In this document: positions 5,725-12,814 of the stretch, piece after piece
How the letters are laid out: each line of letters starts with the position of its first letter
How positions within the stretch are numbered: position 1 is the stretch's first letter
Sequence record: SRR20825006_268
Reading direction: 5' to 3' (one strand)
DNA: 35,410 nucleotides
Program-made: the position numbers and the translations under genes
Notes under the pieces: generated by a model
What the model was told of the DNA's origin: nothing
What the model saw: only the letters and a program-made list of their open reading frames with translations
The model's database searches: none

Positions 5725-6885
5725 TTAAAGCAGATTGCCACTGGAAAAACTGTATTTGACGCTGAACTGGACACGGCGGTCGTAGCCCTTGTCACCGTCA
5801 TTGGCGGTGCGCTTACCAAACAGGTATTCCACCCCCATCATGACCTTGTCATTAGGGGTATAGAGCAGGTTGGTTGAGGCATACTCGCCTTTCTTGAAAG
5901 CATCCGGGCCCTGGAAATCCGTGTTGTCGATTTCGGTAGAGCTATAACCAATAGCGGAACTGTAACGGTCATTCCAGGCATGTTCGTAATAGCTGATCAG
6001 GCCGGTCAGTGGCACTACCTGGTAATCCGGATCAATGGCATTGCCATCCGGTGCCATATCGACCCCACCGTCGTTCATGTAATTGGAAATACCATCACCA
6101 TGAACCACACCCAGAATCAGACGGTCTTTTTCCAGCAGGTTGATCGTGGTGGTCAAATTGACGCCCCAACCCAACTCGCTGTCGTCCGGGCTACCATCAG
6201 GACCACCGGGAGTGTCATAGCCCACCTGGCGCAGGATACCCGCTACCTGGAAGTGGCCCCAGTCGCCGACCTGGCGGAAGTGCGCGGTCAGGTCGGGGTA
6301 TTCGTTGTCGCCCGCAGTGGTATTCGGATCCAGCCCGTTATCCACCCCACTACCCGGAGTCTCAATGGCCACGGCCACGGTCTGATCGCCCTGCACCGGC
6401 GTCCAGCGAATCTGCGGATTGCGCAGGAACACCATGCCCGACGGCCCCCAGTAGTCGATCACGTTAGGGAACACATCCCCGTCCATGAACACACTATTGG
6501 TTTGCCCGGCCAAAATGGATTTCCACTCACCGTAGGCATGACGCAAACGAATCGTCGTCTGCCCCTCATCCGGGCCGACGCCGTACATATCGAATTCGAA
6601 TTTGGTGGTCAGTTCACTGTCACCAGCCATGGTGCTGGCATTCACACCCAGACGACTCTGGCGAACACTCAACTCCGCCTGACCATCACTGCCAACGGAG
6701 GACGCGTTGGTTGGGATACGGCTAGGGCGCAACGCCCCTACCCAATCCGGATTGGGCCGATCAAACGCCTGCACATAATCCACCATCCCGAAACCGTAGA
6801 CTTCGAAAGAGGAATCCGCCAAGCAAGTGAGAGGAGCAAGAAGCAGCGCAGTACCGAGGGTGCGCCTGGAAGCGAGAGTACCCAT
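5725..6885 (-). CDS. DcaP-family trimeric outer-membrane porin
   Basis: Signal peptide, VYGFG, RQSRLG, KFEFD, RLRHAY, GQTNSVFMD, terminal RVQFSVKYSF; start chosen at the ATG downstream of AGGGA. Confidence 0.85.
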   Translation of the reverse strand: MGTLASRRTLGTALLLAPLTCLADSSFEVYGFGMVDYVQAFDRPNPDWVGALRPSRIPTNASSVGSDGQAELSVRQSRLGVNASTMAGDSELTTKFEFDMYGVGPDEGQTTIRLRHAYGEWKSILAGQTNSVFMDGDVFPNVIDYWGPSGMVFLRNPQIRWTPVQGDQTVAVAIETPGSGVDNGLDPNTTAGDNEYPDLTAHFRQVGDWGHFQVAGILRQVGYDTPGGPDGSPDDSELGWGVNLTTTINLLEKDRLILGVVHGDGISNYMNDGGVDMAPDGNAIDPDYQVVPLTGLISYYEHAWNDRYSSAIGYSSTEIDNTDFQGPDAFKKGEYASTNLLYTPNDKVMMGVEYLFGKRTANDGDKGYDRRVQFSVKYSFSSGNLL

Positions 6886-8103: not shown

Positions 8104-9516
8104 ATGACACAGCACACGCTTCACGCCTTTACCGATGACGCCCTGGGCACCGATGACGCCACTGCTCTGGCAGAGCGCCTGCAACGCGGCGACATCAGCA
8201 CCACCGACGCCACCGAGGCCGCCATCGCCCGCTTGCAGCGGGTCAACCCCACCCTCAACGGGCTGGTGCTGGATACCTATGCAGAAGCGCGGGAACGAGC
8301 CGGCAACAAGCACTTTGAGGGCTTTTTTGCCGGCGTTCCCAGCTTGATCAAAGACAATATCGATCTGCGCGGCCTGCCCACCGGCCATGGCAGTGCCGCC
8401 GTGGGCGGCAAACCCATGAAGAAAACCAGCGTACTGGCAAAGCAGTATCTGGCTCAGGGTTTTAACCTGCTGGGCAAGACCACCCTGCCCGCCTTCGGCT
8501 TTACCGCCTCCACCGAGATGGCTCACGCCCCGGCCACCCGCAACCCCTGGCACCTGAACCACTCCGCCGGCGGCTCTTCCGGCGGCAGCGCCGCACTGGT
8601 GGCCGCAGGCGCCGTGCCCATTGCCCACGGCAACGACGGCGGCGGCTCCATCCGCATCCCCGCAGCGGTCTGCGGCCTGGTGGGCCTGAAAAGCACCCGC
8701 GGGCGCTTGGTCACCCAGGAAGCCGCCAAAGCCCTGCCGATCAATATCATCAGCGATGGCGTGCTCACGCGCACCGTGCGCGACACCGCCAACTTCTTCG
8801 CCGAAGCCGAAAAGTACTATCGCAACAGCAAGCTACCCGCTGTCGGGCACGTCACCGGCCCCGGCAAACAGCGGCTACGCATCGGCCTGATGCTGGATTC
8901 CATCGCCGGCGACCCCACCTGCCCGCAAACCCGTGCCGCCGTGGAAGCCACCGCCAAACAGCTGTCCGCCCTGGGCCACCATGTGGACGTCGCCCACATC
9001 GACCTGCCCCAGCGGTTTGTGGACGACTTCCTGCTTTACTGGGCCATGCTCGCGTTCTTTGTCAGCAAATTCGGGCGCGCTCTTTTCCCTCAGGGATTCG
9101 ATAGTCAGCAGCTGGACCCGCTTTCACAGGGCCTGGCCCGCTATTACCGTCAGCGCTTCCTGAAAACCCCCGGCATGCTGCGCCAGCTTCGCCAGAGCCA
9201 GGCCCGCTACGCAGAGGTATTCAACCAGTACGACGTGGTGCTCACCCCGGTGCTGGCCCACACCACACCGGAGCTGGGCTATCTGGGCGCCGATGTGGAC
9301 TTCGACACCCAGCTGGAACGCCTGTTGCGCTACACCACCTTCACTCCTGCCAACAATGCCTCTGGTAGCCCGGGCCTGTCCCTGCCGCTGGGCCAGGCCG
9401 ACAACGGCCTGCCCATTGGCGTCCAGCTCAACGGCCGCCACGGCGAGGAACGCACCTTGCTGGAGCTGGCCTTTGAACTGGAAGAGGCACACCCCTTCAG
9501 GAGACTTACGTCATAG
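8104..9516 (+). CDS. Amidase signature family protein
   Basis: IKDN, GGSSGGSAA, GNDGGGSIRIPA; the upstream extension of the listed ORF overlaps the HAD gene and was discarded. Confidence 0.93.
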   Translation: MTQHTLHAFTDDALGTDDATALAERLQRGDISTTDATEAAIARLQRVNPTLNGLVLDTYAEARERAGNKHFEGFFAGVPSLIKDNIDLRGLPTGHGSAAVGGKPMKKTSVLAKQYLAQGFNLLGKTTLPAFGFTASTEMAHAPATRNPWHLNHSAGGSSGGSAALVAAGAVPIAHGNDGGGSIRIPAAVCGLVGLKSTRGRLVTQEAAKALPINIISDGVLTRTVRDTANFFAEAEKYYRNSKLPAVGHVTGPGKQRLRIGLMLDSIAGDPTCPQTRAAVEATAKQLSALGHHVDVAHIDLPQRFVDDFLLYWAMLAFFVSKFGRALFPQGFDSQQLDPLSQGLARYYRQRFLKTPGMLRQLRQSQARYAEVFNQYDVVLTPVLAHTTPELGYLGADVDFDTQLERLLRYTTFTPANNASGSPGLSLPLGQADNGLPIGVQLNGRHGEERTLLELAFELEEAHPFRRLTS

Positions 9517-9590
9517 AGGCCACCCACCGCCTTTTGCTATTGTCAGTGCCTTGATCTCACAGGGAACCCGGATCATGGCAAATCAGTAGC

Positions 9591-9625
9591 GTAGGTCGTG
9601 TTAGCCTGAAAGGCGTAACCCGACA
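9591..9625 (+). repeat. GTAG-type REP-like palindrome (family 1)
   Basis: GTAG-GTCGTGTTAGCC-tgaa-aGGCGTAACCCGAC-A imperfect hairpin preceded by GTAG. Confidence 0.7.
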
Positions 9626-9666
9626 ATTGGCGTCCTTCCTCTTTTCACAAGGGCAACTGATCAAGG

Positions 9667-9945
9667 ATGATTACCATGAAACAGCCCACCCCGAGTGGCG
9701 GCGTGGTCCACCCACTGCCCGACGATCTTCGCCAGACTCTACTGGCGGACAGCGCCATGCTGGCGCAATGGGAAGACATCACCCCGTTGGCCCGTAACGA
9801 ATGGATTTGCTGGATAGAAGACGCTAAAAAAGCCGACACTCGACGGGGTCGCATTACCCGTGCCCAGGAAAATCTCACCGCCGGCAAACGCCGCCCCTGT
9901 TGCTGGCCGGGCTGCCCCCACCGCGAGCGCACTGGCAAGGCATGA
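9667..9945 (+). CDS. YdeI/OmpD-associated family protein
   Basis: LPDDL..L, WEDITPLARNEWICWIEDAKKADTRRGRI, C-terminal PCCWPGC; AAGGA RBS. Confidence 0.85.
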   Translation: MITMKQPTPSGGVVHPLPDDLRQTLLADSAMLAQWEDITPLARNEWICWIEDAKKADTRRGRITRAQENLTAGKRRPCCWPGCPHRERTGKA

Positions 9946-10164
9946 AAACGTCCGCCCGCGCGCCAACAACCCGGACACCTTACGGCGAGCCATCCGGATG
10001 CACGAGAACCACAAGCTGCCTGATAGTGACGGCTTACCAACATAAAGCCGCAGAGTGCGGTTTGCTTGTTTTCAACGGAAACAGCCCCGCTTACGCACCC
10101 CGCCAGCTACAATTTTCTTCTATATCAAGCACCTTGCTGTCATCCAATGGATGACAATTCTCCA

Positions 10165-10324
10165 GGAGTTATATAGAACGTTCCTCATAACTCCGTGCAG
10201 GAGATTGGCTATAGCATCCCAACCTTTTGTTATGGCAGGCTTTTCCTTGTGGTAAGGGAAGCACGGTTCCAGAGTTATAAGGAACCGGGTTATGCGGAAC
10301 GTTCTAATTAATACGCTGTTAGGC
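10165..10324 (+). mobile_element. Putative integron attI region (core plus repeated upstream arms)
   Basis: Core TAAT-ACGCT-GTTAGGC has the 5-bp L/R spacing of attI1 (TAAA-ACAAA-GTT). Four GRGTTAT-NNN-GAAC motifs lie upstream, and there is no attC-type palindrome directly before the GTT. Confidence 0.6.
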
Positions 10325-10986
10325 ATAAAAGTATGTACCGTAAACTCGAACACAATGTGCCAGAAAAGGCGCAACACAAATATTACAATGAACATTTCGA
10401 GCGTGCTGAAATCGACCTCGCGTTCAAAAATGCGGTTCATGTTTTTCAAAATTGTATATTTGAAGACTGCTGCATAAGGGTTAATTCAAACTCATCTGCT
10501 ACGCCAAAAATACTCGGCACAAATACATTTGCAAATTGCGTAATCTGGCCGGGAAGAAAAATGTCCGTAAGCACCATAGAGGCAAACTTTGTAAGTTGTA
10601 AATTTAAAGGAACATGGTCAGGCCATATAAGAGGCAAGGTAGAAAATTGTGATTTCTCTGAAGCAAATATAGAAATGTTTACCTTCTTTGACCAGAAAGA
10701 AATAGGTAACAATATTATCTGTGGCCAAAACTTAGCCATAATTGAAAATGCTGGTGAGCACAAAGCGGCTTTAAAGTCGGCTTTGGGTGAAGAGTCAAAA
10801 ATGTGGATTCATATTCGCGCAAACACAGGGCTGTTTATTGTTAATATCAATAAGCATCAAGACAGCGAAGTATTGTTAAGGGTTTTGCCTAGTTTGCCAT
10901 TTGTTAAGGTGGCCCATAATGCCTAACAATCGCAGGTTGTCGGACTGGTTTTCCGCTGAGCTCCAAGCCAGCCGCAACTGCGGGCG
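10319..10986 (+). mobile_element. Integron gene cassette (single ORF)
   Basis: Starts at G/TTAGGC (10318-10324), the exact complement of attC R'' GCCTAAC (10921-10927); AT-rich; ATG 14 nt after the crossover; stop codon lies within R''. Confidence 0.88.
10333..10926 (+). CDS. Cassette-encoded hypothetical protein with pentapeptide-like/beta-solenoid repeats
   Basis: 197 aa, AT-rich codons; VFQNCIFEDCCI, TFANCVI, ANFVSCKFKG, VENCDFSEANI. Confidence 0.8.
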   Translation: MYRKLEHNVPEKAQHKYYNEHFERAEIDLAFKNAVHVFQNCIFEDCCIRVNSNSSATPKILGTNTFANCVIWPGRKMSVSTIEANFVSCKFKGTWSGHIRGKVENCDFSEANIEMFTFFDQKEIGNNIICGQNLAIIENAGEHKAALKSALGEESKMWIHIRANTGLFIVNINKHQDSEVLLRVLPSLPFVKVAHNA

Positions 10987-10992
10987 TTAAGG
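10921..10992 (+). mobile_element. attC recombination site
   Basis: GCCTAAC-aat-CGCAG(G)TTG(T)CGG(A)CTGG...CCAGCCG-CAACTGCG-ggc-GTTAAGG: imperfect palindrome with three unpaired bases on one arm. Confidence 0.9.
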
Positions 10993-11026
10993 GAACTTAC
11001 AACCAGCCCCGTTGCATATTTCGGAT

Positions 11027-11965
11027 TCATCTACCGGAAAATGTCCAAGCCAGCACCCGAGCAACCTTGTTTCCCTGCTTCATCTCTATTTCCCGCACCT
11101 CAACGGCGCCGACCTTCAGCATCAATTTCCTCAAAGGCCTCACATTGTCGGATTTTGAAACCAGGCTGGTAAACCAGTGACATTGCGATGAATACACCTG
11201 ACTTTCTCTTACCATTTTCTTGAGAAACAACAGCTCTCCGCCCTTGCACCAGAGCTCAGCGCCCTGCCCACCAAAATTGAGATTCGGCGCCTTTGTTTTT
11301 ACCTTTTCTTTGCCGCGATTGCGCGCAAGGTTCGAGACTTTACGTTGGGTACTTTTCAGTGCCTCATCCTGCGAAGCATGGAAAGGCGGGTTGCATACGC
11401 TGACATCGAAAAACTCATCCGACTGGATGATCCCTTCAAAAATGTGGTTCTTGTCGGTTTGGGTGCGCAGGGAAAAACGCTCTTTGAGATCGGGATTGCT
11501 GGCGATAATCGCTTCCACATTCGCAAGCGACTGGGGGTTTATGTCACTGCCCACACACTGCCAACCGTAAATCCGGCAGGCCAGTAGCGGGTAGATGCCG
11601 TTTGCGCCTGTTCCGATATCAAGTAGCTTGATGTCGGAATTTTCAGGCCCAACCAGATCCGCAATATAATGGATATAGTCAGCCCTACCCGGAATGGGAG
11701 GGCAAAGTGCACCGTCCGGAATATCCCAATCGGCAATATTGTAGTGTTGCTTTAGCAAGGCGGCGTTGAGCGTCTTGACTGCCAACGGATTGGAAAAATC
11801 GATTGAAAGATTGCCGTAAGGGGTTGGCTTCACATGGGAGGCCAACGCCGGATAACGGGTTACCAGAGCAGGAAAGTCATAGCCCTGGTTGTGCAGGTTT
11901 CTCGGATGAAGACCTTTGCTAACCGGTTTGGGCTGGTTTTTCTTACTTCGCTGGCGGGTGTTCAC
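11027..11965 (-). CDS. rlmF: 23S rRNA m6A1618 methyltransferase
   Basis: LHPRN, LCPPIPGRADY, LDIGTGANGIYPLL, CNPPF, ELWCKGGE, WFTSLVSK, MKQGNK, LAWTF; start uncertain (GTG 11965 or TTG 11995). Confidence 0.93.
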   Translation of the reverse strand: MNTRQRSKKNQPKPVSKGLHPRNLHNQGYDFPALVTRYPALASHVKPTPYGNLSIDFSNPLAVKTLNAALLKQHYNIADWDIPDGALCPPIPGRADYIHYIADLVGPENSDIKLLDIGTGANGIYPLLACRIYGWQCVGSDINPQSLANVEAIIASNPDLKERFSLRTQTDKNHIFEGIIQSDEFFDVSVCNPPFHASQDEALKSTQRKVSNLARNRGKEKVKTKAPNLNFGGQGAELWCKGGELLFLKKMVRESQVYSSQCHWFTSLVSKSDNVRPLRKLMLKVGAVEVREIEMKQGNKVARVLAWTFSGR

Positions 11966-12158
11966 AATGACAGGCCTGAGGCGGAGAGTTAACAATTAGA
12001 GTAAATGCGAATTAGCCAGTGATTATAGTGTTTTATCTGTCTCGGGCATAATCGACAGTCAGGAAATCTTGGAGCCAGATCTAGACCTCAATGCTTTACT
12101 CGGTTCTCTATATTTTTTCCTGAACGTTCAGGCTCGCCTATATTCCCTATTAGAGGAA

Positions 12159-12191
12159 TGTCCGATTACGGCTACGCCTAATACGCTCTAT
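12159..12191 (-). repeat. Degenerate REP-like palindrome (family 1), inverted relative to the copy at 9591
   Basis: Reverse complement ATAGAGCGTATTAGGCGTAGCCGTAATCGGACA follows the same (G)TAGnnCGTnTTAG..loop..CGTAAnCnGACA layout. Confidence 0.55.
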
Positions 12192-12358
12192 CCAAGCCGC
12201 TTATAACTTATTTTCCGGTACTCACGTTCTCCCAAGGGAAAAGACTTTTCATTGTCAGATGAATCCCTGGATTTTTTTAGTCCACCTTGTCGATTATCGA
12301 CATTCCAGTTCGACTGATCATTAACAACACATCCGTTAATACGATTAAGGAGAGCGAC

Positions 12359-12814
12359 ATGGCAGAAGCAACGGGGACCGTCACGCTACACCGAGTACTG
12401 CGGGCACCCACTGGTCGGGTGTACAAGGCATTCATTGACAAACAGGCACTGGAATACTGGCTGCCGCCCTACGGCTTCACGGGAACGGTGCATGAAATAG
12501 ATATCAGCGTAGGTGGCGGGTATCAGATGTCGTTCACCAACTTCCGTACCGGTGAATCACATTCCTTCACGGTGAAATACCTGGAACTGGAACCCGGCAA
12601 ACGCCTGTGCCACACGGACCGTTTTGAGAATGTACAGCTGCCCGGGGAAATGCGGGTGACCATTAACCTCGACGAAGTGCCCTGTGGCACGGAGCTTCGC
12701 ATTACCCAGGAAGGAATCCCCGCCGTGATTCCGAAAGCCATGTGTTATCTGGGTTGGCAGGAATCACTGGCACAACTAGCCAGACTGGTGGAACCCGATA
12801 TCCCTGAGGGGTAA
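12359..12814 (+). CDS. SRPBCC/AHSA1 family protein
   Basis: LHRVLRAP..RVYKAF, WLPPYGF, GGGYQMSF, CYLGWQESL; AAGGAG RBS. Confidence 0.9.
   Translation: MAEATGTVTLHRVLRAPTGRVYKAFIDKQALEYWLPPYGFTGTVHEIDISVGGGYQMSFTNFRTGESHSFTVKYLELEPGKRLCHTDRFENVQLPGEMRVTINLDEVPCGTELRITQEGIPAVIPKAMCYLGWQESLAQLARLVEPDIPEG

Follow-up and report, generated by a model that had tools for sequence, protein, structure and literature searches.

The stretch of DNA analysed here (the window; 35,410 nucleotides of record SRR20825006_268) carries a module of short repeats between an amidase/OmdA-like gene block and rlmF, and directly behind the module a single gene cassette with its attC (Table 1). The module starts immediately after a terminator-like hairpin, as it also does in the orthologous loci of other genomes, and OmdA-like orthologs flank the site in the comparison loci L070, L018, and L016 (L numbers denote comparison loci).

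Table 1. Features of the cassette locus and of the module preceding it
Feature	Position	Strand	Remarks
OmdA/YdeI-like small protein, native left gene	9667..9945	+	Pfam PF13376, E 2.9e-15; not a recombinase
Intrinsic-terminator-like hairpin	10045..10063	+	8-pair stem, then T-rich tail; closes upstream amidase/OmdA-like block
P0, left edge of module, TTTTCA-N2-GGAA	10068..10081	+	Degenerate repeat copy
Palindrome P1	10165..10194	.	Copy 1 (10166-10179, +) and copy 2 (10180-10193, -), tail to tail
Conserved spacer block	10195..10244	+	24 invariant columns of alignment A2; between P1 and tandem copies
Tandem direct copies 3 and 4	10272..10300	+	Copy 3 (10272-10285, +) and copy 4 (10287-10300, +); exact motif matches
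Degenerate inverted repeat copy	10301..10314	-	3 mismatches; GTTCTAAYTAAT nearly invariant; with copy 4 forms palindrome P2
Core R box GTTAGGC	10318..10324	+	Heptamer unique in window; end of homology; junction rule
Single gene cassette	10319..10987	+	669 bp; GC 0.40 vs. 0.59 in whole window
Cassette ORF	10333-10926	+	197 aa, function unknown; stop codon inside R'' GCCTAAC
attC	10921..10993	+	R'' GCCTAAC (10921-10927), R' GTTAAGG (10987-10993)
Right half of ancestral unoccupied attI, TTAAGGGAAC...	10988..11005	+	Displaced behind cassette; same flank in L011 before rlmF
rlmF, native right boundary gene	11027..11995	-	NCBIfam NF008725, 432.9 bits (cut-off 302); Pfam Methyltransf_10

Two heptamers that are reverse complements of each other, GTTAGGC (10318) and GCCTAAC (10921), each occur once in the window and sit in a perfect 10-nt inverted repeat (10317-10326 and 10919-10928) that marks the cassette. 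With the crossover lying between G10318 and T10319, the sequence from 10319 onward belongs to the cassette, and by its junction box, ORF, low GC content, and attC, 10319-10987 is built exactly as expected of an integron cassette that entered at this point. The preliminary description of this DNA had missed both the attC and the inverted repeat, as well as the fact that the conserved module begins further upstream, at about 10068.

The attC shows R'' and R' boxes (consensus RYYYAAC and GTTRRRY, the last base of R' being off consensus), a stem with compensatory changes, and, in the fold of the bottom strand, three bulges that lie on one side, the 3' half. A covariance model built from 16 candidate attCs, with compensatory changes in five of the nine stem pairs, scored the window attC at 72.6 bits (E 4e-15), this attC being itself among the model seeds. 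Folding energy taken by itself was not significant (z -1.56 and -2.08, with 13 and 7 of 200 shuffles folding as well). The cassette protein had no Pfam or NCBIfam match. Its 11 relatives in a large protein set include one from Enterovibrio baiacu (69% identical) and a shorter A. profundi protein (81% identical), and a language-model look-up pointed weakly to pentapeptide-repeat proteins (score 0.94; recognition 2001, short of the mark of 2300).

When 10060-11030 was compared with plasmids by BLASTN (distant mode), only the attC part (query 856-930) was matched, in 10 records, and the attI-like part found no plasmid match. Repeats on plasmids or chromids of Pseudoalteromonas, Catenovulum, and Salinivibrio match the window attC at 88-91% identity, which points to one attC subtype common to several orders of marine Gammaproteobacteria; the identity of the window attC to Alteromonas repeats is 77% (10921-10989). 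On the Pseudoalteromonas plasmid L001, an attC-like repeat follows an annotated integron integrase, 4.5 kb further downstream, and the repeat motif of the module was not above chance in the attI region of that plasmid (10 matches with up to two mismatches vs. 9.6 expected). The likeness to the plasmid integrons of marine Gammaproteobacteria is confined to the attC at 10921-10993 and does not extend to the region 10165-10324.

The repeat module and its homologs in Alcanivorax

The motif GRGTTATNNNGAAC matches the window exactly four times, always within 10166-10300, and not once in 100 dinucleotide-preserving shuffles. The preliminary description, which had placed GRGTTAT-NNN-GAAC at four positions, is borne out in this, and the further symmetry it reported is present as well: 10174-10191 and 10289-10306 form an inverted repeat with one mismatch in 18, CCGTGC (10193-10198) is the reverse complement of GCACGG (10261-10266) and extends the symmetry, and the core TTAATACGCTGTT follows, reaching 10320. 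As single-stranded DNA, 10160-10325 folds better than 200 of 200 shuffles on both strands (z -4.68 and -4.61), with the crossover GTT 12 nt outside the predicted long-range stem. Rfam gave a single chance miRNA match (E≤1, 9500-12500). When up to three mismatches were allowed the motif was not enriched (99 matches in the window vs. 84.4 ± 9.0 expected), so that the argument for the degenerate copies is one of position and conservation.

Homologous sites were collected by a genome scan with the tandem pair of copies as the pattern (18 fixed bases), which returned 71 loci. Among these, 26 loci from 15 genomes are clear homologs of window 10068-10320, and all 26 come from isolates and MAGs of Alcanivorax or Alcanivoracaceae. 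The other 45 are unrelated (15-bp tandem repeats or chance matches) and were left out of all counts; L008, L009, L012, L035, and L058 belong here with others, many being 15-bp tandem arrays, e.g., from Planktothrix, an Oscillatoriales MAG, and a Kuenenia MAG. Since copies with variant repeats are missed by an exact pattern, the numbers of copies per genome are lower bounds. In every homolog the similarity reaches ...CGCTG|TTA and ends at G|TT.

Clustering by 6 kb of upstream sequence, which L046 lacked so that it stayed unclustered, placed the window and nine loci in group A, seven loci in group B, and three each in groups C and D, with L027, L028, and L047 as singletons. An adjacent intI was found in group D and in none of the other groups or singletons, and the copies occupy at least seven chromosomal contexts, one with intI. 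Their positions are orthologous across species and not scattered, and the neighbours at seven representative orphan loci are ordinary genes, e.g., for a hydrolase, an efflux pump, or an RNA methyltransferase.

The P0 block is kept in all 25 aligned sequences and in all chromosomal contexts, and the sequence to its left is unrelated between contexts; in other copy groups (group B) its counterpart is the left half of a full P1-like palindrome. The arms of P1 co-vary among the 25 homologs, pair 11-28 being AU in 15 and CG in 10, and pair 12-27 UA in 15 and AU in 9; written out (alignment A2, columns 5-34), the arms read GTTAT...ATAAC in 15 sequences and GTTCA...TGAAC in 10. Such co-variation would be equally compatible with integrase arms, with another symmetric (dimeric) binder, or with a hairpin. 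In contrast to the varying P1 arms, copies 3 and 4 of the tandem pair read GTTAT throughout; as the pattern of the genome scan fixed these two copies, they had to be invariant in the alignment, and the asymmetry with P1 is not conclusive. The spacer block is suggested by its conservation as a candidate cassette promoter (TTGGCT, 17 nt, TGTTAT). A consensus promoter scan found no site in 10063-10330, all three sites found lying inside the cassette ORF, and it is thus conservation on which the promoter proposal is based.

The long-range hairpin of 10174-10191 with 10289-10306 was rejected as a conserved structure, pairing being lost at columns 27 and 28 in 9-10 of the 25 sequences; 82% of the cells pair, in a test compromised by partner columns that the search pattern fixes. 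The pairing of CCGTGC with GCACGG is also lost in most homologous sites of the alignment.

Some members of group A deserve separate mention. In L032:10001 (Alcanivorax sp. S6407) an alignment gap of about 105 nt removes P1 and the spacer block; the tandem copies and the core are kept, and one weak attC match follows (E 0.06). The crossover triplet of L039 (Alcanivorax sp. DP30) is GCT, not GTT, and a cassette with a matching R'' follows; this could be a mutated, inactive site. Between L039 and both L062 and L066 the identity of the module is 0.92-0.93 vs. 0.74 for the adjacent amidase gene (nucleotide), which suggests that modules may have been exchanged or converted between lineages.

Cassettes and attC sites behind the module

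A search with the attC model over 27 sources (442,421 bases, both strands) gave 57 matches at E≤0.1 (16 of them model seeds), and all 57 lie downstream of the site on the same strand. At least one attC was found in 24 of the 27 sources, the other three having less than 550 nt of downstream sequence. The sole match in the window at this threshold is 10921-10992; the region 10165-10324, for which folding as a degenerate attC had been considered in the preliminary description, has none. A reading in which the module was excised as a cassette-like circle via the GTT at its left edge predicts a terminal attC with an R'' that complements this edge. This was checked in the window and the reading was rejected, as the only attC present complements the core junction instead.

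In 21 of 24 loci the four variable bases that follow GTT are perfectly complementary to R'' of the first attC, and three or more of the four positions match in all 24. For later cassettes the rule is perfect in 29 of 33 cases, and with shuffled partners a mean of 2.5 and a maximum of 9 of 24 loci were perfect. As complementarity of this kind is the signature of attI x attC integration, the site is by comparative anatomy a working-type attI. It has the layout of an integron attI, with a G|TT crossover directly followed by cassettes that end in attC.

As for the cassettes that follow the site in other genomes, every locus differs past G|TT. In group A the gene order is glutaminase-DcaP-HAD-amidase-OmdA, module, and, further on, rlmF or mmsB, and the locus of the window (amidase-OmdA, site, rlmF) is common to nine other genomes with different cassettes. 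The window and L070, a contig of Alcanivorax sp. NP90, are identical at 5868 of 6000 upstream positions (97.8%) vs. 22 of 99 positions after the junction, which indicates a recent change of cassette content; the flank identity over 6 kb also indicates that the window is Alcanivorax DNA. The window and L011 have one cassette each, the two being different, behind the same left flank and before the same right one, which begins TTAAG-N-GAAC... and leads to the rlmF stop; from this comparison the unoccupied site could be reconstructed. The occurrence of different cassettes at the same site in close relatives indirectly supports attI x attC recombination at this site.

In the MAG of Alcanivorax sp. 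NP90, the 99 nt after the L070 junction recur without a difference (99 of 99) behind the first attC of L031, an array of group C, and the shared 99 nt form the end of both contigs. Either the same cassette is present at two platforms of one genome or population, or the identity is an overlap in the assembly graph.

Among seven group-A loci, the mean pairwise identity of the module is 0.81 vs. 0.59 for the third codon positions of the amidase gene, and the module exceeds these positions in 20 of 21 pairs. Because 18 of the 156 module columns are fixed by the search pattern, the module figure becomes about 0.79 when the pattern is allowed for.

Integrase genes and comparison with known integrons

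None of the 65 ORFs of the window (21 + 44) had a Phage_integrase match in Pfam, and tblastn searches of the window with two integron integrases returned nothing at E≤1e-3 or at E≤10, so that two points of the preliminary description hold: no upstream ORF resembles a tyrosine recombinase, and the site is solitary, the 10 kb on its upstream and the 24 kb on its downstream side being free of intI and of intI remnants. The window therefore does not contain a complete integron, in which intI and attI occur at one locus together with one attC or more.

The attI1 site carries accessory integrase-binding repeats, and intI normally adjoins attI. In the window it does not; in three of the 26 homologous sites (L024, L026, and L048, found by tblastn with the L001 and then the L026 integrase) it does, and intI is there divergent as in the textbook integron, its start codon and the tandem copies being about 263 bp apart. 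These three loci share the single context of group D. The L026 protein scores 397.4 bits on TIGR02249 'integron integrase' (cut-off 265) and shares 48.3% identity with IntI1. Between the ribosome-binding site of intI and the module, L024, L026, and L048 alone have a LexA-box-like CTG-N10-CAG, about 240-255 nt upstream of the tandem copies, and the orphan copies are without it. The modules of L027 and L028 are closest to those of L048 and L026, the similarity beginning just right of the LexA-box-like element.

Beside the other 23 copies, which lie in at least six contexts, no intI remnant was found (tblastn E≤10); a 24-residue match in L028 was rejected as a remnant, being non-coding module sequence. 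In A. profundi one intI-linked copy (L026) is accompanied by two orphan copies (L051 and L066), and in MAG SAT93 one linked copy (L024) by two orphans (L047 and L062). For 12 of the 15 genomes no intI was present among the fetched loci, which comprise exact-pattern loci only. Integron integrases named from Alcanivorax were found at 61-99% identity, those of other Alcanivorax species at 61-66%, and orphan arrays contain a match of 82% identity or more to three of the 10 attCs found in intI-linked arrays. The comparison supports the stand-alone attI of the preliminary description, and the site of the window very probably belongs to a genus-wide set of orphan attI platforms, which exist alongside a single intI-linked one.

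For comparison with class 1, attI1 was taken from plasmid NZ_AP022178.1 (L073). In both systems the crossover G|TTA lies directly before the first cassette and is preceded by two direct GTTA-type repeats, 19 bp apart in attI1 and 15 bp apart here. The order of L box, three bases, and G|TTA in attI1 is matched by the degenerate inverted copy, three bases, and G|TTA, and in the intI-linked homologs the site lies between divergent intI and cassettes. However, there is no sequence similarity outside the short boxes; the repeat is here a 14-bp unit ending in GAAC, the module is enlarged by two further palindromic pairs, P1 and P0, and by a conserved spacer block, intI begins about 307 bp from the crossover in Alcanivorax vs. 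about 136 bp in attI1, and the window and 22 other homologs have no adjoining intI. Copies 3 and 4 resemble DR1 and DR2 of attI1 in layout, and 10301-10314 would by position be the L box of the simple site, standing three bases before GTT as in attI1. Since the order of elements matches, copies 3 and 4 may be read as accessory integrase sites and 10301-10324 as the simple site; binding of the integrase to the 14-bp units is predicted from this layout of DR1, DR2, L, and R.

IntegronFinder has a class for single attC sites that lack an integrase. With one attC at E≤0.1 and no intI, the window falls into this single-site class and not into CALIN proper. A CALIN is a cassette cluster lacking an integrase and needs at least two attC (PMC4889954). 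The same source gives integrase loss, splitting of arrays, and insertion at secondary sites as proposed origins; integrase-less clusters are common and unexplained, partly for want of attI sequences, attI being unknown for most integrons and hence not searchable (PMC4889954). The orphan loci described here resemble CALINs in having cassettes with attC and no intI nearby but differ in that a complete cognate attI stands at the head of the array, and none of the three proposed origins predicts attI-headed arrays at several loci at once. In Xanthomonas, intI-less clusters occupy a few conserved chromosomal positions away from the intI locus and are taken as a sign of ancestral integron activity, most intI genes being inactivated (10.1101/2025.06.18.660453). 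The two systems share intI-less cassette clusters at conserved chromosomal loci; they differ in that no attI copy at the cluster heads is reported in the part of that work available to us (10.1101/2025.06.18.660453). A narrow literature search, made without subscription journals, found no description of orphan attI copies or of the structure of the Alcanivorax integron.

Interpretation of the site and its significance

Based on these comparisons, 10068-10324 very probably reproduces in full the attI module of the chromosomal integron of Alcanivorax, standing alone between amidase/OmdA and rlmF, where it has captured one cassette. An integron integrase would have recombined the attC of a circular cassette with the site at G10318|T10319 and thereby left one cassette (10319-10987) behind it. 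The 14-bp GRGTTAT-NNN-GAAC copies would most likely be integrase-binding arms, with copies 3 and 4 acting as accessory direct repeats and the degenerate inverted copy with GTTAGGC forming the simple site at which strands are exchanged; P1 and P0 would be additional upstream palindromic arms with no counterpart in attI1. As no intI is linked to the site, any integration or excision there would have to be catalysed by an integrase encoded elsewhere, and the site, possibly still active, could be serviced as in the genomes that have one linked copy together with orphans. The preliminary description had offered service in trans and a clean deletion of intI as alternatives. The two are compatible, the former concerning present function and the latter origin.

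It is unlikely that the locus is a fossil integron, in which intI was deleted, the site is inert with nothing to service it, and the cassette is a fixed passenger. The absence of intI and of any remnant from the window, and of intI from the fetched loci of 12 of the 15 genomes, would fit such a fossil, and the GCT core of L039 and the loss of about 105 nt in L032 show that some copies do decay. However, a fossil should not be more conserved than neighbouring third codon positions, as the module is, nor be followed by different first cassettes in genomes with 97.8% identical flanks or by unlike single cassettes within identical flanks, as in the window and L011; attC subtypes are moreover common to intI-linked and orphan arrays, and integron integrases do exist under the name of Alcanivorax. 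A little more weight may be given, still with doubt, to the idea of a real attI in which the palindromes (P0, P1, possibly also P2) are bound not by the integrase but by another protein, e.g., a symmetric transcription regulator of the cassette or of intI, or act as DNA hairpins. The symmetric co-variation of the P1 arms (AT/AT vs. CA/TG, in 10 and 9 of 25) beside copies 3 and 4 that stay GTTAT would agree with this, although variation of the latter is invisible under the search pattern, as would the lack of P0 and P1 counterparts in attI1 and the position of P0 next to the LexA-box-like element and the intI start in linked copies. On the other hand, all copies share one motif, the GTTA part of which is similar to the crossover box; orphan copies, with no intI to regulate, retain the palindromes; and no regulator gene is consistently linked, the upstream neighbours being unrelated housekeeping genes.

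The two remaining explanations deny that the repeats are part of an integron. Cassettes have been reported at sites other than attI, both attG (10.1101/2025.06.18.660453) and secondary sites (PMC4889954), and the cassette could in principle have entered at a chance GTT of the attG type in an ordinary intergenic region with repeats of unrelated origin; we consider this hardly credible, as this module of about 250 bp, always with the crossover at the same point, stands before the cassette arrays of 26 loci, three of which have intI next to it. Barely more probable is the terminal repeat array of a transposon or MITE that became multi-copy by transposition. Up to three copies were seen per genome, and there are multiple short repeats in both orientations with strong single-strand folding; neither a transposase nor any other recombinase adjoins the 23 orphan copies, seven of which were taken as representative loci, however, and instead of scattered insertion sites there are orthologous positions across species, with a right end that is always the crossover G|TT followed by co-oriented attCs, and with no Rfam match.

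The textbook picture of an integron is a single integrase with one attI and one array. In Alcanivorax the attI is recognisable, and the orphan clusters of a whole genus are headed by full attI copies that are under constraint and whose cassettes turn over; integron finders that use only intI and attC will misclassify such loci. A wider reading, which the comparison allows us to put forward tentatively, at somewhat less than an even chance, is that Alcanivorax has a distributed integron. One SOS-controlled intI would serve several orphan attI platforms at fixed positions, each selected as an independent landing and probably expression site, and the platform of about 250 bp from P0 to the crossover would itself be copyable, having spread to new intergenic sites, each time with the same left edge, through some mechanism that has yet to be described. 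If this is true, 'one integrase, many platforms' would become an architecture open to test and a possible source of some clusters without an integrase, and the genus would provide a natural system for asking which attI arms the integrase needs.
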